The position numbers were made by a program, and so were the translations under genes. The notes under the pieces were generated by a model that saw nothing but the letters and a program-made list of their open reading frames with translations, made no database searches and was not told where the DNA came from. DNA of 21,023 nucleotides. Origin: a virus (taxonomy: Duplodnaviria > Heunggongvirae > Uroviricota > Caudoviricetes). The stretch lies in IMG/VR virus record IMGVR_UViG_2778261176_000007, positions 1 to 21,023 of that record; one strand, given 5' to 3'. Below, piece by piece: positions 3,318 through 13,700 of this stretch (the first letter of the stretch is position 1; each line of letters opens with the position of its first letter).

Positions 3318-6074
3318 TTAGCTACTTTCAAGCATTGCAAGACGTGATTCTATTTTTTCGATTCTTCTACGCAAATAAGCTGACTCAAGCCATAAACACT
3401 GGTCAGTACGGATACCCCACCTATTTCCAGCCTTGCAAACCAGAGTTCGCTCTTCTGTTTCGTATTCTTCTTCCATCTCAATTTCGACGCCATCCACAAC
3501 TTTAGTGATCATCCTTACCGCCATCACTGGCGCGTATTTATCATCCCATTCATCGTAACAGAGAAGGCCAAATCTGGTTCCATCAATCCCATGCGCGAGG
3601 AAAGTGTCTCTCACTTGTTGTGCTATAACACCAAAATGCCAGCGGGCACCATCTCCCTTTTCCCTGACGGCATCAAGCCAGCGAAAAGCTACAATCCTGA
3701 TATCTCCCCATGCATCCAGAATTGCATCACCTTCATAACCACGAGACATATACAAGCTGAGCTCACTTGTACTAATCGGTTCACTTTTTTCTCTACCATC
3801 TGATGTGTTTATCGAACCGTTCGCAGAATAAACCTGTGCCCATCTAAATGATGGTGCACCAAGAGATTTGCTGTTATCAATAATTGGTGAAAAATTACCT
3901 TTAATAGCAATATTTCCAGAGTCGCCGAATATATTAATAACTGCAGAGTCATCACCATGGTTTTTTACGCTTAAGTTTCTTGATGAAATATTTATATCTT
4001 TGTTATATCCACTAACATTAATCCATCTTTTACCATCAATGTGATACCCGTAAATATTTCCGTTTGATTGTTCGTCAGGTGACTCTCTAAGAACAATAGC
4101 ATCTACTCCAGACGACCATTGTATTTTTGTATCTGTAGGCCTCCAGTTCTTTATAATGAACGAACCATCAGTAAACTCCGTTTTTATTTGTCTATTGTCT
4201 ACAAATGCGTCTCTTGGTTTAAACTCACTTGTGTTAACGCTGCTCTGAAGATCAGAAGCAAAAAATCTAAGATTTCCTGTATAACCCTTAGTCTCGGTCA
4301 GGTTATACGCAATCATAATTCCATTTTCAAACTCAGATGATGTTATTTTAACATCACGGCAATCACCAAAAATGCAATTTCCTTTATCAAATGTTGTTTG
4401 AGCTTTGAATTTATCAAACCTTAAATTACGAACAGGGAAACCATCAACCTCTAATGCAAAGGATGCAGGAAGGCCAAAGTATTCTGATGGCTTACCTGAT
4501 GTATGATCAAGAGTAGTGGCTACTGTATTCTCAAAAACAGTCCCGCTAAAATTATTACCAATTGACGGAAACCTGATTACACTTATTGTACCTTGTATTT
4601 CAGGAGAAATACCAGATAGTGTGATGTTAGCTCCATCAAATGATGCATCTGAATACGTATATACTGATTCACTGCCAGCAATTTTAAACTGTTTAACTGA
4701 AGTTATTCTCATCGACTTTTTATGTTTAAATGTCACTGAGCTTTCAGTATTACTTACAAGATCAATCTGAGGGCTATTCCTTATCGCGATTCCTGACTGG
4801 ACATAAACGTTATTAAAGTGCGTTTTTTCAGGATTTCCCTTCATTGAAAGGCTACCGTCATTTTCTGTCAGTAGTAGTCCTTTTACCCTCCAATAGCCGA
4901 CAATCTGTACGTTATCAATAACTGAATCACAGCTATCGTATACATGCAACCCTATATCCCAGTTATCACCCAATGAATAAGAATCAGGGTTATTGTATCC
5001 TTCAATACCATTTTTACTTACCATTATTCTCAGATTGCGTAACTGTGATGCCCTGTTGATACTAACAGCTACGCTCATGGCTTTTGGTGTAGCAGGAGTA
5101 ACACCTACAGAATCTTCATTTGTAAACTCAGTGAACTTACAAGATATCCCTTCAACAATTTTAACTGGTCTTTCATTAGAGATGTTAAAAAAATATTTGT
5201 TTTTTTCTCCATCACCAGTAAATATAAGATGGGTTCCTTTACTCCAACTTTTTAATAATCTTTCAGGCGCTGGTCTATATGTATCCCAATAATCAATGCC
5301 ATCACCAATTAAAGACACTCCAGGAGGCACATCTATGTTCTTAGAAATCATCCATTTACCTGCAGGTATTCTAACGACACTTGCACCAGAATTTATCGCA
5401 TTAATTAACCATTCAGACGCATCAACTTCAAAATTTAATGCAGCATATCTTTGCTCAAACGGAACAAAATCAAGAGCGTTAACGTTATCCCGCATCTTAT
5501 CCTGGAACGTTCGGTATACTGCTCCAGAACCATACTGAATAAACCAACCAAAACCACCAACAACTCCGGCGATTGCAGCATCAACATAATTGCGCATTGA
5601 TCGATTATTTACAGCATCCTGCTCAAGTGATGGATCTGCAAGGTTAGAAATTTTGTTTTGCTTTGCATCGTAATATTTTGCAAGCAAAGATGGTTTCATC
5701 AATGCACGTCTGAACCATCCAAAACATTGCTGGATCAGCATCGTCAGGTAGTCAAATGCATCCTCATGAACTTCGGGGAAAAATTTTCCCTGATTGCGAA
5801 GATCAGTCTCCTGCACCACATCAAGCACACGCTCTATCGTGATTCTCCAGCCAGCAGCAAGCGGCGACGGAAGAACCACAGAACCGCCACTATAAGTGCC
5901 CGCCCCTGTTACCGTATAACCGGTATCCAGAACCAATTCTGTTACGTTCCCGTTCAGGTCAGACACCTGAACAACCAGGTCGGATTTTTTGAAAATACGG
6001 AAGGTATACGGAAATGATGTCGTAGTGCCGTTACCTGTGTATTCGTTGTGGTCAACTTCGGTTGAGACCGTCAT
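3318..6074 (-). CDS. Tailspike / tail fiber with T7 gp17-like N-terminal adaptor, central putative depolymerase domain and C-terminal intramolecular chaperone (peptidase S74-like)
   Basis: 918 aa. The N-terminal 120 aa align by eye with the T7 gp17 N-terminus (YTGNGTTTSFPYTFRIF versus YQLDGSNRDFNIPFEY). The central region is AT-rich (about 3800-5650). The last 160 aa or so (SDGREKSEPISTSELSL...WHFGVIAQQVRDTF...) resemble the autocleaving chaperone domain of endosialidase-type tailspikes. GGAGA SD upstream of the ATG at 6072-6074. Confidence 0.9.
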   Translation of the reverse strand: MTVSTEVDHNEYTGNGTTTSFPYTFRIFKKSDLVVQVSDLNGNVTELVLDTGYTVTGAGTYSGGSVVLPSPLAAGWRITIERVLDVVQETDLRNQGKFFPEVHEDAFDYLTMLIQQCFGWFRRALMKPSLLAKYYDAKQNKISNLADPSLEQDAVNNRSMRNYVDAAIAGVVGGFGWFIQYGSGAVYRTFQDKMRDNVNALDFVPFEQRYAALNFEVDASEWLINAINSGASVVRIPAGKWMISKNIDVPPGVSLIGDGIDYWDTYRPAPERLLKSWSKGTHLIFTGDGEKNKYFFNISNERPVKIVEGISCKFTEFTNEDSVGVTPATPKAMSVAVSINRASQLRNLRIMVSKNGIEGYNNPDSYSLGDNWDIGLHVYDSCDSVIDNVQIVGYWRVKGLLLTENDGSLSMKGNPEKTHFNNVYVQSGIAIRNSPQIDLVSNTESSVTFKHKKSMRITSVKQFKIAGSESVYTYSDASFDGANITLSGISPEIQGTISVIRFPSIGNNFSGTVFENTVATTLDHTSGKPSEYFGLPASFALEVDGFPVRNLRFDKFKAQTTFDKGNCIFGDCRDVKITSSEFENGIMIAYNLTETKGYTGNLRFFASDLQSSVNTSEFKPRDAFVDNRQIKTEFTDGSFIIKNWRPTDTKIQWSSGVDAIVLRESPDEQSNGNIYGYHIDGKRWINVSGYNKDINISSRNLSVKNHGDDSAVINIFGDSGNIAIKGNFSPIIDNSKSLGAPSFRWAQVYSANGSINTSDGREKSEPISTSELSLYMSRGYEGDAILDAWGDIRIVAFRWLDAVREKGDGARWHFGVIAQQVRDTFLAHGIDGTRFGLLCYDEWDDKYAPVMAVRMITKVVDGVEIEMEEEYETEERTLVCKAGNRWGIRTDQCLWLESAYLRRRIEKIESRLAMLESS

Positions 6075-6177
6075 GTTAAATCTCCAGATAGTCGCAGCAC
6101 CCGTTGCGCCGCATATCTGGTTATTCTATTACCTGAAAAACCACATATGGATAGAAAGACTGTAAATACGAATAGAT

Positions 6178-6194
6178 ATTACCTTTCGGGTAAT
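6178..6194. promoter_or_regulatory. 17-bp palindromic operator-like site ATTACC-TTTCG-GGTAAT (copy 1 of 5)
   Basis: Perfect 6-bp inverted arms with a 5-bp spacer. Located in the divergent region between the tailspike gene and the small Ant-C-like gene. Confidence 0.55.
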
Positions 6195-6232
6195 TTGCAA
6201 AACGTGCTGGATAGCAAACAAATTATTTGCTA

Positions 6233-6248
6233 CTGTATAAATATACAG
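6233..6248. promoter_or_regulatory. LexA (SOS) box CTGT-ATAAATAT-ACAG
   Basis: taCTGTATAAATATACAGtt differs from the LexA consensus CTGTATATATATACAG at one central position. It sits 22 nt upstream of the ATG at 6270 and contains a TATAAAT -10-like hexamer. Confidence 0.6.
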
Positions 6249-6269
6249 TTATTGCATGGAGAAGATAAG

Positions 6270-6527
6270 ATGCAGCAGTATCACTATCCACTGGAAGACG
6301 GATTTACCGAAAGGATTCACACGCCGGGAGGCGTCAGATCACTAGTGGAGGGATCGCACTTGATGAAATTACTCCGGGATCTCGATAAGGATGGATTTAA
6401 TGTCGATGGCCCACTTGCCGAACTGACTGCACTGATTAACTACGTCACCAGCTCACAGATGTCTATGCGGGATCTGCAAACACATCTCGACTATTGTGCC
6501 GAACAATTACGAAAACAAACCAGATAA
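6270..6527 (+). CDS. Small stand-alone protein homologous to the C-terminal domain of the two Bro-N antirepressors (candidate SOS-controlled antirepressor-like factor)
   Basis: 85 aa from the internal ATG (the track ORF starts at 6147 but would cover the operator palindrome and LexA box). GGAG SD 9 nt upstream. Alignable by eye to the Ant C-termini (LAELTALINYVTSSQMSMRDLQTHLDY versus AAELTTMFCYIVGVSKCLRDIQTHAEY). Confidence 0.5.
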   Translation: MQQYHYPLEDGFTERIHTPGGVRSLVEGSHLMKLLRDLDKDGFNVDGPLAELTALINYVTSSQMSMRDLQTHLDYCAEQLRKQTR

Positions 6528-6556
6528 GGTTTGCAATTACCAAGTGGAGTGCTTAT

Positions 6557-6575
6557 ATTTACCTTTGCGGTAAAT
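6557..6575. promoter_or_regulatory. Palindromic operator-like site ATTTACC-TTTGC-GGTAAAT (copy 2 of 5), at the start of the ant1 leader
   Basis: Perfect 7-bp arms. About 45 nt upstream of the conserved structured leader element. Confidence 0.55.
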
Positions 6576-6600
6576 TTACATCGCACTCCTCTTGTGCCAT

Positions 6601-6685
6601 AGTAATCGGGCACTGGCAAAATCCAGTGCCGGGATTGGCGTCCCGGATTACTAAAAGGCGCATTCACCGCGCAAGCGGTTTTTTT
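6601..6685 (+). ncRNA. Structured leader RNA element upstream of ant1 (c4-like antisense-RNA candidate): closing stem, two hairpins, and a hairpin plus U7 terminator
   Basis: Stem AGTAATC (6601-6607) pairs with GATTACT (6646-6652). Hairpin A is GGCACTGG-caaaat-CCAGTGCC (6609-6630). Hairpin B is CCGGGA-ttggcg-TCCCGG (6629-6646). Terminator-like ACCGC-gcaa-GCGGT followed by T7 (6666-6685). The stems are conserved in the inverted ant2 copy while the loops differ (compensatory pattern). Confidence 0.4.
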
Positions 6686-6842
6686 ATGCGTATAGCACGG
6701 CCACATTCGTATTATGGTGGGCTGTGTGGGGGCACCGAAAGGTGCGCCGGGTCCTTTTAGCCGGTTACGCCAACCCTGCACAGCTCACCACCAACCGATT
6801 GGCGTCGGTAGTGGTGATTAACCAGACTAAAAGGTAACCACT

Positions 6843-7538
6843 ATGACAGCTACAAAAAGCACGTCCATTTTTTCTTTCGAATCCCAAGCCGATATACGAG
6901 TAATCGTCATTAATGGTGAGCCATGGTTTATCGCTTCAGATGTTTGTCGGGCTATAGGCATAGCAAACCATCGAGATGCTGTTCGAAAACTTGATGATGA
7001 TGAGAAGGGCGTCGCTTCAACCGACACCCCTGGCGGTGAGCAAGAATCGATCATCATCTCCGAGTCAGGCCTCTACACACTGATCCTCCGCTGCCGCGAC
7101 GCAGTGACACCAGGCACTATCCCCTACCGCTTTCGTAAATGGGTTACAGGTGAGGTTCTTCCTCAGATCCGCCGCACCGGAAGCTACATTAAAAACTCGC
7201 TCCCGCAGGAAGAACGCATAAAGATGGTTGCCGACCAGGTAGCCAACGCCACGGCGTCAGCAGTAATGCAGGCGATGAAGATAGAGAACAAAACCTACAG
7301 CGCCCCGCTGAAGCCCGGCTACCGCAGTTTGATTCACTCGCCGTCTGGTGTTCTCGGCCTGACGGAGAACTCACTGCTGATGAATCTGCTGAACCAGTTA
7401 CAGGAAGACGGGCACGACGTATCGGGCGCGGCGGCGGAACTGACCACCATGTTCTGCTACATCGTCGGTGTGAGTAAATGCCTGCGTGATATCCAGACCC
7501 ACGCGGAATACATCAACGACAAGGCAGGGGTCTTCTGA
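6843..7538 (+). CDS. Antirepressor-like protein with Bro-N N-terminal domain (ant1)
   Basis: 231 aa. N-terminus IFSFESQADIRVIVINGEPWFIASDVCRAIGI...ESGLYTLILR is a Bro-N-type motif. AAAGGT SD before the ATG. The C-terminal half is nearly identical (about 95 percent nucleotide identity) to the inverted paralog at 8652-9344. Confidence 0.85.
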   Translation: MTATKSTSIFSFESQADIRVIVINGEPWFIASDVCRAIGIANHRDAVRKLDDDEKGVASTDTPGGEQESIIISESGLYTLILRCRDAVTPGTIPYRFRKWVTGEVLPQIRRTGSYIKNSLPQEERIKMVADQVANATASAVMQAMKIENKTYSAPLKPGYRSLIHSPSGVLGLTENSLLMNLLNQLQEDGHDVSGAAAELTTMFCYIVGVSKCLRDIQTHAEYINDKAGVF

Positions 7539-7547
7539 CAGAACGGC

Positions 7548-7570
7548 GGCACAGGGATGTGCCTTTAAAT
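7548..7570 (+). terminator. Putative terminator of ant1 (hairpin GGCACA-ggga-TGTGCC followed by TTTAAAT)
   Basis: 6-bp stem about 10 nt after the ant1 stop. The T-tract is interrupted, so this is weakly supported. Confidence 0.35.
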
Positions 7571-7604
7571 AATTCTGTACAGATTGCAGGTGAATAGCGT
7601 ACTA

Positions 7605-7619
7605 TTACCCCAAAGGTAA
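7605..7619. promoter_or_regulatory. Palindromic operator-like site TTACC-CCAAA-GGTAA (copy 3 of 5), upstream of the AT-rich two-gene cassette
   Basis: Perfect 5-bp arms with a 5-bp spacer, about 120 nt upstream of the ATG at 7737. Confidence 0.5.
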
Positions 7620-7736
7620 GAAAGTTGATTTGTAACATTTTAGTTTGTAGTTACCGTGATGGTTTTGCTGCAGAAAGTTAACTAGTCAAAATCACACCGT
7701 ATGTAAGTCACGTCTGTTCCCGTATGGGAGGATGAT

Positions 7737-7955
7737 ATGTTTAAATTTGATATGCAACTCAACCAAAACTATGCCTCTTTTTACCATCCAGAAACTGGTA
7801 AAGCTGTTTTCGTTGACTCTTTCGATAATGAAGAATTTGATATCAGAATTGGGACCCTACGCCAAAGTAAGCATGTTGCTACTGTACGTGCATCCAATGA
7901 TGATGAATTAAATCAAAAAATAAGTGAGGCGACCTCCCGTTATCTATGTCTATAA
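7737..7955 (+). CDS. Hypothetical protein, 72 aa (first gene of AT-rich moron cassette)
   Basis: Strong SD GGGAGG 7 nt upstream of the ATG. AT-rich codon usage unlike the flanking genes. Its stop overlaps the start of the next ORF (ATG at 7946, TAA at 7953-7955). No recognisable domain. Confidence 0.55.
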   Translation: MFKFDMQLNQNYASFYHPETGKAVFVDSFDNEEFDIRIGTLRQSKHVATVRASNDDELNQKISEATSRYLCL

Positions 7956-8323
7956 CAGAACAACAACTCATTGATCTTGAGGATGAGATTAACGAGATCT
8001 TGCAAGAAGATGCGGCAAGAATTCACTTTTCATTTCACGCAGCATATGAACGCCTGAACGACGAGAGGAACAAACCGCCAATTACTCTTGCTGAGCTTGA
8101 AGATGTGTTTAAATCGTTTATATCTGCACATCTGCAGACTGTTTTGGATTTTGCTGAAGGTACAACTTTCACCATAAAGTGCAACAAAAGCGCCCTTCAT
8201 TTTCCTTGCGCCATTGTACACGAAAGAGAGTTTGGGAAAACGTGGGTTATCCAAAACGTCATTACAGCCATGAGGAAAGTGGGATTCAAGTCTAAAGATT
8301 CTATTATCCTCGAAGTTAATTAA
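7946..8323 (+). CDS. Hypothetical protein, 125 aa (second gene of AT-rich moron cassette)
   Basis: Translationally coupled to the 72-aa ORF. Acidic N-terminal half. Followed immediately by an intrinsic terminator. No recognisable domain. Confidence 0.6.
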   Translation: MSITEQQLIDLEDEINEILQEDAARIHFSFHAAYERLNDERNKPPITLAELEDVFKSFISAHLQTVLDFAEGTTFTIKCNKSALHFPCAIVHEREFGKTWVIQNVITAMRKVGFKSKDSIILEVN

Positions 8324-8344
8324 GCCCGCACTGAGGGCTTTTTT
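8323..8344 (+). terminator. Rho-independent terminator of the two-gene cassette
   Basis: Stem AGCCC / GGGCT with loop GCACTGA, followed by TTTTTT (8339-8344). Directly after the stop codon at 8321-8323. Confidence 0.7.
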
Positions 8345-8416
8345 ATGGACGAAACAAAAGTCAGTGCTACACTCATTGACGCCACATTGAGGTGGCTTAT
8401 AGATGGAAATTTCACA

Positions 8417-8578
8417 ATGAAAAAAGCATTTGCTGCACTGTTCGTTTTGTTGTCTCTGGTAGCTTCAACTCAGGCCTTTGCCGGTCGTTGTCAGCACGAC
8501 AGCGATACTGCCGCTGACGGCTCCCGCTGCGGTGGGCGTTCTGCGGACTCCCGCCCGGGCGGCGGTGGCATTCGTTAA
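8417..8578 (+). CDS. Small secreted Cys/Gly-rich peptide (about 53 aa), hypothetical
   Basis: Signal peptide MKKAFAALFVLLSLVASTQAFA then GRCQHDSDTAADGSRCGGRSADSRPGGGGIR. Weak SD. The upstream in-frame ATG at 8345 lies inside the preceding terminator T-tract, so 8417 is the more plausible start. Confidence 0.3.
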   Translation: MKKAFAALFVLLSLVASTQAFAGRCQHDSDTAADGSRCGGRSADSRPGGGGIR

Positions 8579-8600
8579 AAACAAGGCCGCGAAAGCGGCC
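8577..8600 (-). terminator. Rho-independent terminator of ant2 (minus strand)
   Basis: Hairpin GGCCGC-gaaa-GCGGCC (8585-8600) followed on the minus strand by TTGTTTTT. About 50 nt downstream of the ant2 stop. Confidence 0.5.
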
Positions 8601-8651
8601 TGTGACATGTCACGCTAGTTTCGTTTTGCACGTCCCTGTGCCGACGTTCTG

Positions 8652-9344
8652 TCAGAAGAACCCTGCCTTGTCGTTGATGTATTCCGCGTGCGTCTGGATA
8701 TCACGCAGGCATTTGCTCACACCGACGATGTAGCAGAACATGGTGGTCAGCTCCGCCGCCGCACCCGATACGTCGTGCCCGTCTTCCTGTAACTGGTTCA
8801 GCAGATTCATCAGCAGTGAGTTCTCCGTCAGGCCGAGAACACCAGACGGAGAATGAATCAGGCTGCGGTAGCCGGGCTTCAGCGGGGAGCTGTAGGTTTT
8901 GTTCTCTATCTTCATTGCCTGCATCACTGCTGATGCTGTGGCGTTGGCTACCTGGTCGGCAACCATCTTTATGCGTTCTTCCTGAGGGAGCGAGTTTTTA
9001 ATGTAACTTCCGGTGCGGCGGATCTGAGGAAGAACCTCACCTGTAACCCATTCAAGAAATCTGAATGCTCTCGTTCCCTCAGTCATTGCCTCTTTGCAAC
9101 GCAGAATAAGGATGTAGAGACCTGATTCTGAAACGATGGATAGTTCTTGTATTCCACCAGGGGTCTGTATTGAATACAGCCCCTTTTTGTTCCAGCCTTT
9201 TTTATCAAGTTTTCTCGCTTGTGTAACATCAATATTCAAAGCATTGCACACATCTTTGGTGACAAACCAAGGTTCTCCGTCAATCATGAACATACGGATC
9301 TGGCAGGATGACTCAAAGGAAAAGATGGAAGGTTTGGTATTCAT
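8652..9344 (-). CDS. Antirepressor-like protein with Bro-N N-terminal domain (ant2), inverted paralog of ant1
   Basis: 230 aa from the ATG at 9342-9344 (the track ORF starts 15 codons upstream at a TTG). AAAGGTGA SD. The Bro-N domain has diverged from ant1 while the C-terminal 130 aa differ at only 2 residues. Confidence 0.85.
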   Translation of the reverse strand: MNTKPSIFSFESSCQIRMFMIDGEPWFVTKDVCNALNIDVTQARKLDKKGWNKKGLYSIQTPGGIQELSIVSESGLYILILRCKEAMTEGTRAFRFLEWVTGEVLPQIRRTGSYIKNSLPQEERIKMVADQVANATASAVMQAMKIENKTYSSPLKPGYRSLIHSPSGVLGLTENSLLMNLLNQLQEDGHDVSGAAAELTTMFCYIVGVSKCLRDIQTHAEYINDKAGFF

Positions 9345-9498
9345 AGCGATCACCTTTGTAGTTAGGTTAATCACCACCGCTGAGACCAATCAGATGGTGG
9401 TGAACTGTGCAGAGTTGGTCTTACCGGCTACAAAGGAACCCGGCGCACCTTTCGGTGCCCCCACACAGCCCACCATAGAATAGGTGCGCTTTACACAT

Positions 9499-9584
9499 AA
9501 AAAAACCGCTTATGCGGCATATGTGCCTCTGTAGTAATCCGGGAGACCAATCCCGGCACTGGATTTTGCCAGTGCCTGATTACT
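9499..9584 (-). ncRNA. Structured leader RNA element upstream of ant2 (twin of 6601-6685), c4-like antisense-RNA candidate
   Basis: Same closing stem and two hairpins as the ant1 leader, with loop B changed from ttggcg to ttggtc. Terminator-like CCGC-ataa-GCGG followed by U7 on the minus strand (9499-9517). Confidence 0.4.
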
Positions 9585-9611
9585 ATGGCACAAGAGGAGT
9601 GCGTTGTAAAT

Positions 9612-9626
9612 TTACCTCAAAGGTAA
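9612..9626. promoter_or_regulatory. Palindromic operator-like site TTACC-TCAAA-GGTAA (copy 4 of 5), at the start of the ant2 leader
   Basis: Perfect 5-bp arms. Equivalent position to copy 2 in the inverted arm. Lies in the divergent region between ant2 and the 9774 gene. Confidence 0.5.
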
Positions 9627-9773
9627 TAATAGACGCAGGTGAATATCAAAATCAACCACATTTGGTTAAGGTGTGTAAAAGAGCCACCAGCGAGAAATTG
9701 TACCGCGATGTAAAATAACGAGAATCTGCTGGCTTACAACCAGCGATGTTTCAAATTTGTCACTACTATCAAC

Positions 9774-10172
9774 GTGCCATTCCACGGCGTAGAACTTTAT
9801 GTTGTCAATCACAACGGCGAACCGTACACCCCAATGAAACCTATCGTTGAGGGAATGGGGCTAGACTGGAAATCTCAACATAAGAAGATTTCTCAACGCT
9901 TCTCGAAGGGTATGGTGGAAATCACCATACCTTCTGCCGGTGGGGTGCAAGCCATGATTTGTATGGCTTTACGAAAATTGGCAGCTTGGTTGAACAGCAT
10001 CAGCCCTAACAAAGTCCGCCCTGAAATCCGCGATAAGGTAATCCAGTATCAGGAAGAGTGTGATGATGTGCTCTATGAGTACTGGACTAAAGGCCATGTG
10101 GTTAACCCGCGCAAAGCTAAAAAGGTGTTGCCGGGTAAAATCACTACTGAGCAACAGGAGGTATACACTTAA
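9774..10172 (+). CDS. Phage antirepressor-like protein (P22 AR N-terminal-like domain), hypothetical
   Basis: 132 aa. The motif LRKLAAWLNSISPNKVRPEIRDKVIQYQEECDDVLYEYW resembles antirepressor N-terminal domains as I recall them. The first in-frame start is a GTG with no clear SD, so the start is uncertain (an internal ATG lies 20 codons in). Confidence 0.5.
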   Translation: MPFHGVELYVVNHNGEPYTPMKPIVEGMGLDWKSQHKKISQRFSKGMVEITIPSAGGVQAMICMALRKLAAWLNSISPNKVRPEIRDKVIQYQEECDDVLYEYWTKGHVVNPRKAKKVLPGKITTEQQEVYT

Positions 10173-10196
10173 CACTTGATCACATTAGCACAAAAT

Positions 10197-10213
10197 ATTA
10201 CCTTTAAGGTAAT
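10197..10213. promoter_or_regulatory. Palindromic operator-like site ATTACC-TTTAA-GGTAAT (copy 5 of 5), immediately upstream of the membrane-anchored moron
   Basis: Perfect 6-bp arms. Ends 20 nt before the ATG at 10233, so it overlaps the expected promoter/RBS region. Confidence 0.55.
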
Positions 10214-10232
10214 GTTATTGTGAGGAAAAGCA

Positions 10233-10760
10233 ATGGAAGTTTTCTTAATCATCGTCGGCATCGTGATTATTAATTTTGTTTTTTTATTTATTGCAAAAAA
10301 ACAAAAAAGTAACGATATGCATGTTTCTACAACTGATGATCTTACCTTTGTAGAGCATGCACTGAATGTATCAGGATATAAACTCACTCCATACGGAGCT
10401 GGTGTATCACTCATGTCTTTAAGTAACGGTTTTTCAAAAGAAGAAACATTTTCACATATAGCTTTGATGGCTCTTTCTCAACACGCCAAAGTCGCAGGTA
10501 GTGACGCAATTGAGCTTAGTAAAGTTAGCATTCGTGCGATGTCGATAGCTGAAAACTTAACTAAATTATTCAGGAAAGGTCTTATTCGATCAGAAATATA
10601 TAAAAATGATTTGAATGCTATCATGGCTGTCAGCACAATTAATGAAAACCAAGAGGATTGGATTTCCATAGTTCTGGAAAGCAATAGCACATCTAACAAG
10701 GATACTATTGCTTTGCCGATAAGTGCAGAAGCTTCTTTAGAAGCCATAAACAGCCATTGA
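10233..10760 (+). CDS. Membrane-anchored hypothetical protein (moron; candidate superinfection-exclusion or abortive-infection factor)
   Basis: 175 aa. N-terminal TM helix (VFLIIVGIVIINFVFLFIA) followed by KKQK, then a soluble domain. GAGG SD 7 nt upstream. Strongly AT-rich coding sequence. Convergent with the structural operon. Confidence 0.65.
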   Translation: MEVFLIIVGIVIINFVFLFIAKKQKSNDMHVSTTDDLTFVEHALNVSGYKLTPYGAGVSLMSLSNGFSKEETFSHIALMALSQHAKVAGSDAIELSKVSIRAMSIAENLTKLFRKGLIRSEIYKNDLNAIMAVSTINENQEDWISIVLESNSTSNKDTIALPISAEASLEAINSH

Positions 10761-10781
10761 AAGAACTCCAATAAATATTGA

Positions 10782-13700
10782 TTAACGCATCACCGGATCC
10801 ACTTGGTTTATTAGTGGCGCAATCCAGAACAGGTTATTGCCGGGTATCAGGGTTCGGACATTATGCACAATACGATCACCGGCATCACCATTCAACACTC
10901 CTGCGGTCACATCAATGATGCTATCCGCAAGACCAAATGACGGTCCGAATAGAGATCCTACGAATCCACGACTGGCATACCTAGACTGTGTGCCAGTGCC
11001 AAATAAAGCCCCCAGCCCAACAGCACCACCAGTAGCCTTTTCAGCCATGTTGTTATATTCCATCAATGGCCCAAGAATACCGGATCTATCTATACCCTCA
11101 AGCACCAGCTTCTCTGGTGACCAGTCAACATTTTTCCCTTTCGATGCTTCTTTAAGCGCATAGACCAGTGAGCCAAGAGCAATCTGAAATGCAGTGCCAT
11201 AATAAAATTGCGCAGTTCCTTCCTGTAACCCACCAAGTAGCGCACGGTTGTATGAAGCCGTTGTGAATGATTTAAACTGAAATATCGTTCGCCCCATTGG
11301 AGTACTCGCCCATAAAGGTGTGTCACCAATACCGGGGGTGATGATAGTGTTATTAACGTCTTTCAGAACCGCTGACTGGAATACTCCGGCAACGTACTGA
11401 TCGTCCCATTTATCAAAGTTACCAATGTGCCATCCATCAATTACCTCACCATGTTTCTCGAACTCACTGCGAATACGCGCAGCCATATTGTCGTTGATAC
11501 CGAGTTTTGCCATGCGACGTGCAGAAAACGCACCAGACAAAATACCGTCTGACGTGAGCATTCCGTTCATGGATTTGTTTATGTCATTAAATCGATCCAT
11601 GAGTGTCAGCTTGCCGAAGGCATCAGTAATTCGCTCCATTCCTGCTTCGACTGCTGTTGTCCTGGAAGAACTGTCAACAAGATCACCAATTGCACGAGAA
11701 CGTGAATGTAGTACAGTTTCCAATCCAATCCCCATCTTCAACATCTCTTCTTTGCTGGCCTTAAATGCCGGTGATTGGGATATCTGAGAAGCATAGCCTT
11801 TCATGGAGTTACGGAAACCATTAACCATAACCCCTCTGGCCAGATCTGGAATAGCTGATACTGTCATTCCACCGAGTTTGGTCGTGAAGTTCACATCCCG
11901 CAGAAAAGCGCCAGCACGAACAAAAAACGAAGACGGGTCATCAGGCATACCATATGTACCAACAAGACGATCGCGTAATGCTGTTATGTCTCTGAGATCA
12001 TTTGCTCTTGATTTTGAAAGTCTGGACTGTTCTTTCCGTAATTCCTTTTCGTACTTTCGCATTAATGAATCGAGTTTACCCTGAGGAACAACTTCACCAT
12101 TGCTCTCATAACGTGCTTTCAGATTTGCCACACTTTCGTCATATTTCGCCTTTATTTTTTCAGGCACTTCCCGTAACAGACTGTCATATTCGTCCTCAAT
12201 TAATTGCAGACGCTCTGTCATAGTTCGTTTGCCAAATGTTCTCGTCAACTCAATTTCTGCTGCCGCTTCACGGATATGACGTTGTAGAACGTAATTCACA
12301 TCACTTTCGAGATAATCCCTGATAAGACTATCAGGCACATTTAATGTTCTTTCTTTCGTACTACCTGCAGCTTTTACAGAAAATACGCTGACAAAATCCT
12401 GTGGAACCTTAGCACCAGTAATTTTATTAATTACGATATCCGCTGCAATTTCAGCATCCTCAGGATCCAGTGTTTTATTGCCTCTCGACCACCAGTCAAC
12501 CAAAATACGTCGAAATTTATCGCGTTCACTGATTATTTTTCCAACTTTATATATACGTGGGAAATAGCTTGCCTGGCCTAATGCTTTCAGTCCTTCATCT
12601 GGCGGCAATAAACCAAGCTTTTGCATTTCAACCTTCACCCGATTTAATACAGTTCGCATCGCCTGCGCCGTTTCCTGAACAACAGGATTAGCATGCACAT
12701 CACCGCTTCGCATAGCATTCCCAACCTGCTGACGAAATGAATCAAAACTCATGTCACCACCATCAGCTTTATACTTTGCGTATGCCTGTTTATTTCCGAC
12801 AACAACAGCAGCTTCTTCACGCTGCCATCCACGTGTACGGGTTTCTACAGCTACCGGTGTTTCAATCCCCCTTTCATTTCCTTTAAGGGTGAAATTATTT
12901 TCGGCTAACTCCAGCGTTGTTTTTCGCACTGTCTTGGACGGAGACTCCATTAACCTTGTCAAAGGAGTAAGATAGCTCCCTGCTTTCCATGCAGCCTTTC
13001 CAACCACCCCACCGGAAACAGGGGTTAAATCATCCAGAGTCGCTGTATCAATTTTCATAGCACCAACACTACCACCATCAGAAAGCGAAGCGGCAGCCCT
13101 GTCAGTCGCTGATGTAATGCTCATATTATCAAGAGCATCAGCAACCTCACGCGTGGCTGCAGCCCGGACGGATGGCGAAAGCGCAACACCAGCACTGGCA
13201 AACACGCCGCTCATCATCGCACCCGCTGCAACGTGAGCGGCACTTTCACCCCATGAGCGTGTTATTTGCTGATTATTCAGCACAACCTCGCTTAATGCTG
13301 TACCGGCTGCACCAATCGCAATCTGTGAGCCAATACGCGCCAGTGCCCCTCCTTGAGCACCTGGGATAAACATTGACGCAACAGTAACCGGGTCAAAAAG
13401 CATCGCTGTTGCACTGGCAATTCCACCAGCTAAGCCTGCTTCAGAGATAAAACGCCGATCTTCATTTTCATCATCTATCTGCTGCTTAATCCACGCCGTT
13501 TCCTCTGGCGATCGGGAATCTGCAAATTTCGCCCCCCAGTATTCATAACCGTGCAACTCATTTTTATCAGCATATGGGTTATAACCCTCGACCGGTTCAA
13601 ACTGTCTGGCAGGACGGAAAAAACCAGCCAGAATATTGTTCTGTCGTATTGCTGCGGCAAGCAATGAAGGCTCTTTGGGACGAGGTTCAGGGTTCTTACC

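Follow-up and report, generated by a model that had tools for sequence, protein, structure and literature searches.

A two-gene cassette nested in an epsilon15-like prophage

The stretch of DNA analysed here (IMG/VR record IMGVR_UViG_2778261176_000007, positions 1 to 21,023; all 21,023 nucleotides are hereafter called the window) is a portion of an epsilon15/phiV10-like (Uetakevirus-type) Escherichia coli prophage, and its genes include those for holin, endolysin, tailspike, injection proteins and antirepressors. Between two inverted antirepressor genes lies a pair of short open reading frames (ORFs), which a preliminary description of the window had singled out as an accessory cassette without recognisable domains. 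Both are on the plus strand. The small partner gene (7737-7955) encodes a protein of 72 amino acids (aa), a putative antitoxin or immunity protein; the large gene (7946-8323) encodes a 125-aa protein with a predicted RegB/RelE (BECR) fold, a putative endoribonuclease toxin.

The two ORFs were found in the sequence as described, overlapping by 10 nucleotides (nt), with the letters ATGTCTATAA. A strong Shine-Dalgarno site, GGGAGGA at 7726-7732, is spaced 4 nt from the ATG of the 72-aa ORF, and no such site was found for the 125-aa ORF; together with the overlap, this fits the translational coupling that had been proposed. The arms of the inverted repeat of the antirepressor genes extend over 7005-7562 and 8628-9185 (558 nt, 88% identity), so the cassette is indeed nested between them. 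It is also, as claimed, more AT-rich than its neighbours: guanine-plus-cytosine (GC) content falls to 0.36-0.42 within the cassette, the halves of the antirepressor genes next to it having 0.55-0.58 (the gene pair has 0.388, the whole window 0.464), and low GC is not unique to it, further AT-rich patches lying at about 5000-5450 and 10100-10850. The picture of a small acidic protein with a partner needs completing, as the partner is acidic too: each protein has an isoelectric point (pI) of 5.16, and the net charge of the 125-aa protein is -7.

Compared with their Pantoea and Klebsiella copies, both ORFs show nonsynonymous divergence (pN) of 0.05-0.2 and synonymous divergence (pS) of 0.5-0.8 (saturated), and are under strong purifying selection. 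That they are chance ORFs is ruled out by pN being much lower than pS and by the conservation of both proteins across many loci and several bacterial orders.

The large protein belongs to a widespread phage family with a predicted RegB-like fold

For the 125-aa protein, phmmer and profile searches gave no match in Pfam (E up to 0.1), NCBIfam or PDB. The two proteins matched only function-unknown families in PHROGs, and PADLOC-DB v2 yielded no match at E up to 1 for either of them or for the alternative cargo proteins described below. A profile search of 1.84 billion representative proteins returned 693 relatives of the 125-aa protein, and a second search 1,554, none with a Pfam domain or an informative name; a few are labelled 'homoserine dehydrogenase' by their source.

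The domain to which the 125-aa protein corresponds is about 115 aa long. Of 140 hits spanning most of the profile, taken from the 150 best proteins, 30 have this domain alone, 39 at the N-terminus, 51 at the C-terminus and 20 internally. One giant phage protein of 5,704 aa (P0156) contains nine copies of the RegB-like domain. The fusion partners, recorded in 98 fused members, are CTP_transf_like (20), DUF5824 (15) and Zeta-toxin/AAA_33 kinases (7), and further DUF5661, DUF3008, PAP2, HNH, GNAT, 2H phosphodiesterase and nucleotidyltransferases. By analogy, the fusions with cytidylyltransferase-like, Zeta-toxin/PNK-like kinase, 2H phosphodiesterase and DUF5824 domains are reminiscent of RNA-end processing and repair enzymes.

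Across 55 diverse members, H31, R36, E50 and R110 are invariant and R41 (54/54), T107 (54/55) and K111 (53/55) nearly so; N38, D39, N42, I46, L51, P87, M109 and F114 are also invariant or close to it. Most of these residues fall in two conserved motifs, HF.DR.ND.RN.P.I and TIMRKK.F.

The alignment of these 55 sequences gave an AlphaFold2 model with pLDDT 95.1 and pTM 0.87, compared with a pLDDT of only 47.8 when a shallow alignment of 15 sequences was used. A Foldseek search, one of the checks that had been suggested, found no match to this model in the PDB; among viral models it returned members of the family fused in phage proteins, followed by an annotated RegB homologue (E 7.4e-6). The statement that no domain is recognisable therefore holds at the level of sequence, but not for the fold of the large protein once a deep alignment is supplied. 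The modelled chain runs through an N-terminal helix, a short strand, a short helix, a long helix and a sheet, which, apart from the extra first helix, corresponds to the RelE-like arrangement given in the relevant passage of a 2026 survey of the BECR fold. An extra first helix is what sets RegB apart from RelE and YoeB (PMC3014915). As modelled, then, the protein displays a RelE-like BECR fold together with the N-terminal helix of RegB that is missing from RelE and YoeB. H31 is at the start of helix 30-36, and T107 comes just after strand 98-105. Our reading is that the large protein family constitutes a further, hitherto unmodelled, RegB/RelE-like family of BECR ribonucleases.

Partnerless homologues of 128 aa were noticed in four contigs of marine T4-like phages (L020-L023; such labels are our own), at about 5001-5387. 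Their place is within the cluster of baseplate genes: a gp53-like gene and one for 462-466 aa stand on one side, gp5 on the other (directly or one gene further), and the homologues overlap the upstream gene. This location, odd for an RNase, hints at association with the virion.

The small protein is paired with one clade of the large protein family

Neither the 72-aa protein nor its 18-sequence profile has relatives in Pfam, NCBIfam or PDB. The small protein family is strongly conserved, with the motif VDSFDNxEF and with N11, A13, F15, D27, S28, F29, D30, N31, F34, L58 and N59 invariant. At a distance it is even better conserved than its large partner: the two proteins of the window share 47% and 33% identity, respectively, with those of locus L035, and 44% and 34% with those of L017.

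Genetic linkage of the two proteins is strict. Among viral loci, those with a large protein sharing 38% identity or more with that of the window have an intact small gene directly upstream in 32 out of 32 cases. At more distant viral loci, where the domain is solo or fused (ORFs of 128-1,117 aa, marine T4-like phages included), a small gene within 4 kilobases (kb) was found in 0 of 44. Starting from the small gene instead, 40 of 41 viral loci have the large gene directly downstream. Pairing is obligate, and limited to one clade of the large protein family.

Searching bacterial genomes, one per species, with the small gene gave a census of 19 loci. In 18 of them this gene is intact, and in 17 the pair is adjacent; the large gene is intact in 13, broken in four (L043, L044, L049 and L052) and absent from two (L046 and L055). 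Frameshifts, premature stops and internal deletions account for the broken copies, and that of Pseudoduganella has lost the β2-β3 region. Three of the four loci with a broken large gene keep the small gene intact, and L046 and L055 retain the small gene alone. Such asymmetric loss suggests that the large gene is costly.

The pair is a horizontally mobile unit

Some 67 proteins are close relatives of the 125-aa protein; nearly all of them measure 123-125 aa and, where a name is given, come from Enterobacterales, and they are very common in Klebsiella. The set of relatives of the 72-aa protein is similarly narrow. In all contexts examined the two genes are neighbours on one strand with a tight junction: they overlap by 1, 4, 10 or 41 nt, or are separated by 2-12 nt.

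The contexts themselves vary widely. Klebsiella epsilon15-like prophages carry the pair in the same slot as in the window; a Mu/P2-like Pantoea prophage has it next to tail-fibre genes; a Chromobacterium siphophage has it after Arc/Arc/Ant, where the large gene had previously gone uncalled; another copy resides in an integrase islet adjoining HicAB; and four loci (L009, L017, L018 and L035) are plain chromosomal sites without phage genes. In other viral contigs the pair has tail, ligase, methylase, integrase, GGDEF/EAL and tail-tip genes around it. The module is thus spread across prophages of podo-, myo- and siphovirus type. Nucleotide homology between contexts covers about 620 base pairs (bp), that is, the Shine-Dalgarno site, the two genes and the terminator only. 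GC content of the pair is 0.36-0.41 in hosts of 0.52-0.57, and equals that of the surroundings in two low-GC contigs. The pair is a horizontally mobile two-gene unit, and its designation as an acquired moron was well founded: foreign base composition is kept, the cassette is rare in E. coli, and it recurs in unrelated phage and chromosomal contexts.

The surrounding genes are less informative than they seemed. The preliminary description took the immunity and antirepressor neighbourhood as a telling context, and this link does not generalise across loci. A functional tie to antirepressors is ruled out, because antirepressor genes accompany the pair in E. coli, Klebsiella and one Chromobacterium phage, and elsewhere the neighbours are unrelated.

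The cassette occupies a hypervariable cargo slot

Only four of 5,426 complete E. coli genomes contain the complete cassette, namely enterotoxigenic E. coli (ETEC) H10407, SEC470, Es_ST80 and strain 602687; it is also found in one partial phage record. In all, 533 of these 5,426 genomes match part of the query, most of them through one or both flanks of the slot with other cargo in between. In alignments, homology to other cargo types stops at about 7619-7624, which marks the left junction; on the right, the junction coincides exactly with the terminator, at 8322.

A survey of this locus in related prophages for cassette swapping had been suggested as a check, and several alternative cargos were indeed found between the fixed junctions. 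In TL-2011b and many E. coli strains the same junctions enclose a 59-aa protein together with a YafO-family toxin (Pfam YafO_toxin, E 8e-6). Elsewhere the slot holds a single 210-aa protein, a DUF4760 protein or one of several further unnamed proteins; relatives bearing DUF2335 match the right flank only. With its foreign base composition, as a dispensable insert between conserved flanks for which alternative cargo exists, the cassette has the traits of a moron in a variable position, and it occupies a hypervariable cargo slot of epsilon15-like prophages.

On the left, the conserved flank is formed by a Bro-N antirepressor gene (6843-7538, plus strand; Bro-N E 2.3e-21, PHROG anti-repressor families), a neighbour kept in sister prophages. 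The conserved right flank is a plus-strand gene at 8417-8578 for a 53-aa signal-peptide protein (phrog_14503, membrane-associated moron), annotated elsewhere as the 162-nt coding sequence WP_000708858.1.

Regulatory sequences in and around the slot

A palindrome, TTACC-N5-GGTAA (TTACCccaaaGGTAA), is located at 7605-7619, in the flank common to all cargo types. It had been taken for an operator of the cassette's own. The palindrome is real and above chance: the window holds five exact copies (6179-6193, 6559-6573, 7605-7619, 9612-9626 and 10198-10212) where 0.42 would be expected by chance, and a site with one mismatch at 2950-2964 brings the total to six, a number reached by 0 of 100 shuffled sequences. 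As one of five copies, and lying in a shared flank, it is ruled out as a private operator of the cassette. All five exact copies are within the accessory region of 6.1-10.2 kb, and four sit 21 to about 225 nt 5' of a gene start. The copy at 6179 falls within the listed ORF 6147-6527, whose likelier start, in our view, is the ATG at 6271, about 80 nt further on. The palindrome also has an extended form, ATTACC-N5-GGTAAT. Every epsilon15-like locus fetched has 2-4 copies, and at four loci outside this group (L010, L076, L077 and L145) a copy precedes the pair by about 100-120 nt. Judging from this distribution, the palindrome is probably a shared operator of a regulator, and through it a single phage regulator may control both the slot and the accessory genes beside it.

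The conserved left flank also includes a promoter-like remnant on the plus strand, TTGCAG-10 nt-TACTAT at 7584-7605. TL-2011b and strain 07_3636 have 7 extra nt here, giving TTGCAG-17-TACTAT, and the Klebsiella copy reads TTGCAA-17-TATATT; the 10-nt spacer is shared by the window and H10407, the two cassette-bearing sequences aligned. Loss of 7 nt from the spacer may silence or lower transcription into the slot.

Between the left junction and the genes, a cargo-specific leader with the Shine-Dalgarno site extends over 7620-7736 on the plus strand; homology to the pair in other contexts begins at 7709-7727. Its predicted RNA fold is no better than that of shuffled sequences (z -0.02), and the small palindromes inside it are trivial. 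No Rfam family was found in the leader, hence there is no sign of an RNA antitoxin.

The intrinsic terminator on the plus strand at 8322-8340 has a 6-bp stem with 4 GC pairs, followed by TTTTTT. The hairpin and T-run described earlier are therefore present, but they also form the conserved right boundary of the slot, the terminator sequence AGCCCGC..GCGGGCTTTTTT being common to all cargo types. The hairpin follows the pair in three Pantoea loci as well (L009, L010 and L012). Since both terminator and palindrome stand in shared flanks, they belong to the slot as much as to the cassette.

A candidate toxin-antitoxin-like module

Taken together, the predicted RNase-toxin fold, a partner that occurs only in temperate and chromosomal settings, the preferential loss of the large gene and the presence of a YafO pair in the same slot argue for a toxin-antitoxin (TA)-like module. 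We favour, with some confidence, the view that the cassette is an undescribed module of this kind with a RegB-like RNase as toxin. Our analysis in this way supports the earlier proposal of a TA-type candidate and adds the obligate pairing within one clade. From these observations we infer the RNase activity and toxicity of the large protein, its neutralisation by the small one and the biological role outlined here.

In the mechanism that we propose, the 125-aa protein would be a metal-independent endoribonuclease of BECR/RelE-like fold whose closest solved relative is T4 RegB. Its predicted active site would consist of His31, Arg36 and Arg41, in the short helix and the following loop, and of Glu50, Thr107, Arg110 and Lys111, the last three at the C-terminal end of the sheet. 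The 72-aa protein, encoded upstream and translationally coupled, would be its dedicated inhibitor, and the overlap of the genes would ensure that at least as much of it is made as of the RNase. In a lysogen the pair would sit as an inert complex. Were the inhibitor lost through loss of the prophage, shut-off of host expression or infection by another phage, the RNase would be freed to cut mRNA or other RNA, and growth would stop. The outcome could be prophage addiction, defence by abortive infection, or both. The bolder claim, that the pair founds a TA or abortive-infection family in which a T4 RegB-related toxin is held by a new small, highly conserved protein inhibitor, we put forward tentatively, as one that could fall either way.

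Several observations weigh against this interpretation. An hhalign comparison of the family alignment with an alignment of 8 RegB sequences is weak (probability 7.9%, P 0.004, 38 columns); it places H31 on RegB His48 and R36 on Arg52, and puts the position of His68 on the variable K56, so that in this alignment the second catalytic histidine of RegB lacks a counterpart. His48 and His68 are the catalytic histidines of RegB (PMC3014915). Among 153 members of the family, no RegB, RelE or PBECR match appeared in the Pfam families inspected, which were the 25 most frequent for the 55 solo members and all 19 for the 98 fused ones; the RegB_T4 model in particular is not among the 25 most frequent of the 72 families that the solo members match at E up to 1. 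The sole match to MuF_C, in protein P0125, has an E of 0.006, below the Pfam cutoff, and covers residues 79-167 where the domain covers 11-129, the common part being 79-129. One would not usually expect a pI of 5.16 in a toxin that binds RNA; for RegB and the solo members from phages it is 9-10.

The small protein departs from expectation as well. Searches of the domain libraries found no ribbon-helix-helix (RHH), helix-turn-helix (HTH), Phd or AbrB DNA-binding domain in it, and its better conservation relative to the large protein is the reverse of what most type II antitoxins show; on these two grounds it resembles an immunity protein more than a classical antitoxin. The small gene was the starting point for the census of decay, which on its own is therefore unable to establish that no locus has lost the small gene and kept the large one; the sets started from the large gene, comprising 32 viral loci and about 10 genomic contexts, offset this bias only in part. 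Expression is a further difficulty, as no sigma-70-like promoter was found within 7400-8700 and the promoter-like element of the left flank has its 10-nt spacer in the window; a promoter belonging to the cassette alone is accordingly rejected.

Other functions could be imagined for a pair of this kind. The 125-aa enzyme might serve the phage, cutting phage and host mRNAs after infection or induction, with the 72-aa protein as cofactor, specificity subunit or timing inhibitor. RegB, the nearest solved relative, does serve phage gene expression, and the wider family is found mostly in lytic or large phages, solo or in giant fusions and without the partner; the location of the cassette within a regulated accessory region with shared operator sites, and a small partner as well conserved as a functional subunit should be, are in keeping with such a role. 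We nevertheless regard it as unlikely, given that the pair also stands alone in the four chromosomal sites without nearby phage genes, that so rare a cassette (four in 5,426 genomes) is evidently dispensable and swappable, and that decay of the large gene with persistence of the small one is unexpected of a two-subunit enzyme. The same stand-alone chromosomal copies, along with the integrase/HicAB islet, better suit a host-side or selfish module than an anti-defence effector, in which the RNase would destroy defence RNAs (CRISPR, retron or other guide RNAs) and the small protein would restrain or chaperone it. This function, proposed for phage BECR domains in a passage of Iyer et al. (PMC5512222), would agree with the fusion of relatives to conflict domains (Zeta-toxin-like kinase, nucleotidyltransferases, HNH and GNAT). 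It is, however, made improbable by the lack of any virion-packaging or delivery domain and by the confinement of the paired clade to temperate and chromosomal contexts, in which it is hard to see what an anti-defence RNase made constitutively would be for.

The RegB-like fold could, finally, be a scaffold only, so that the two proteins would form a non-catalytic RNA- or protein-binding pair with a non-toxic regulatory or exclusion role. The acidity of the paired clade beside basic solo members and the apparent lack of an equivalent of RegB His68 would then be readily understood, and a precedent exists in MuF-C, a member of the BECR fold that is predicted to be inactive where Iyer et al. discuss it (PMC5512222). 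We give this little credence, as H31, R36, R41, E50, T107, R110 and K111 are kept in paired and in solo or fused clades alike, which points to one retained chemistry, and as the asymmetric loss of the large gene suggests a cost. Overall, a phage-serving RNase, an anti-defence effector and a scaffold all suit the chromosomal copies and the asymmetric decay less well than does a TA-like module.

Comparison with known systems

T4 RegB (PDB 2hx6; Pfam RegB_T4) shares with the TA-like module proposed here the Foldseek match of its homologue, the extra N-terminal helix, carriage by phages and, in the weak alignment, a strand-His-x4-Arg motif (FT.HF.DR against YSQHLLDR) at RegB His48/Arg52. Identity is 14% and there is no Pfam match. 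Instead of His68, which appears not to be kept, the window protein has conserved Arg41, Glu50, Thr107, Arg110 and Lys111, and it is acidic where RegB is basic. In lytic T4-like phages RegB stands as a solo gene for 153 aa (28 more), no protein inhibitor of it being known, whereas the window protein has an obligate upstream partner and occurs in temperate or chromosomal contexts. RegB cuts at GGAG and is stimulated by ribosomal protein S1. Dedicated 'anti-RegB' partners for RegB-type RNases were raised as a possibility in a 2010 review (PMC3014915).

The cassette can also be set beside type II TA systems of the RelE/ParE group (RelBE, HigBA, YefM-YoeB, DinJ-YafQ and also YafNO), and as proposed it would act in the manner of a RelE-type system or of a toxin-immunity pair such as barnase-barstar. 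Like the type II systems, it is a mobile module in which a small gene comes first and overlaps a putative toxin gene for some 100-125 aa, it forms a conserved adjacent operon that moves as a unit, and its putative toxin gene decays preferentially; a pair with a YafO toxin holds the identical slot in sister phages. Unlike them, it has no sequence match to RelE, ParE, HigB, YoeB or YafO models, the active site predicted for the window protein (His/Arg/Thr) differs from the Lys/Arg/Tyr of RelE, and for its small partner neither an RHH, HTH or Phd-type domain nor any relatives could be detected.

PBECR domains, in the passages describing them (Iyer et al. 2017, PMC5512222), have a His starting the N-terminal helix together with a Thr or Ser late in the sheet, and occur both solo in phages and as domains of very large multidomain (polyvalent) phage proteins; both features recur in the family studied here. 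Matches to the Pfam models PBECR1-5 or MuF_C were not convincing. Fusions within our family are to CTP_transf_like, DUF5824 and Zeta-toxin-like kinases and not to MuF or portal proteins as in those passages, which also describe no clade with a dedicated small partner gene. Barnase-barstar and colicin-immunity pairs likewise combine a BECR-fold RNase with an adjacent small, acidic, globular, conserved inhibitor devoid of a DNA-binding domain, as the 72-aa protein putatively is. In those systems, however, the toxin is secreted or delivered and its gene usually precedes that for immunity; the pair of the window has no signal or delivery domain, and the gene of its putative inhibitor comes first and overlaps.

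Judged by matches to sequence models, the proteins fall outside RegB, RelE/ParE, YafO, PBECR and all PADLOC defence models. They are best described as a putative new family of BECR-fold toxins, accompanied by a partner family that is new as well. Searching the literature by protein accession or for a 'RegB-like toxin', we found nothing.

These results assign a testable function, that of a RegB-like endoribonuclease, to a phage family of more than 1,500 unannotated proteins and domains. The clade paired with a putative inhibitor is a free-moving module of temperate phages and of chromosomes in Proteobacteria, Enterobacterales among them; Klebsiella pneumoniae commonly carries it, and ETEC H10407 has it as well. 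Should the large protein prove toxic and neutralisable, TA and defence catalogues would gain a new toxin and a new antitoxin family. The small protein would be a putative natural protein inhibitor for RegB-type enzymes, and the pair, if our reading is true, would show that such RNases can indeed have dedicated 'anti-RegB' partners. New BECR toxin pairs as such will not surprise specialists; what deserves attention is the connection to RegB, the size of the family and its split into partnered and partnerless clades. The slot, with at least six alternative cargos, is in addition a place to mine accessory and defence genes in epsilon15-like prophages.

Neighbouring genes and the antirepressor region

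The 53-aa protein of the right flank begins with a classical signal peptide, MKKAFAALFVLLSLVASTQAFA, followed by a mature part of about 31 aa rich in Gly, Arg and Cys. Most of the 533 query-matching E. coli genomes have a match to its gene region, which represents the fixed right flank. A 77-aa ORF at 8345-8578 is a window-specific extension of the same gene; it is present only here because the GTG of sister sequences has changed to ATG at 8345.

The inverted duplication that brackets the slot is imperfect and longer than its core arms. It extends over 6554-7562 and 8628-9631, with four extra segments outside the core, and contains two Bro-N antirepressor genes, with near-identical C-terminal halves, and their upstream regions. 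As the four cassette-bearing complete E. coli genomes differ in the genes on the right side, the inverted arrangement appears specific to this prophage lineage. Two further pieces of antirepressor genes are found nearby. At 9774-10172 a 132-aa ORF with a GTG start contains the P22_AR_N domain alone and is an antirepressor gene fragment. At 6147-6527 there is an ORF of 85-126 aa (the shorter form starting from ATG 6271), the C-terminal part of which matches phrog_450 and phrog_15539, both antirepressor C-terminal families. The antirepressor region appears to be a mosaic put together from recombined ant modules.

A further moron-like gene, again AT-rich with a GC of about 0.36, occupies 10233-10760. 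It encodes a 175-aa protein with a hydrophobic N-terminus, whose only match is phrog_21690 (function unknown), and a copy of the palindrome stands 21 nt before its ATG.

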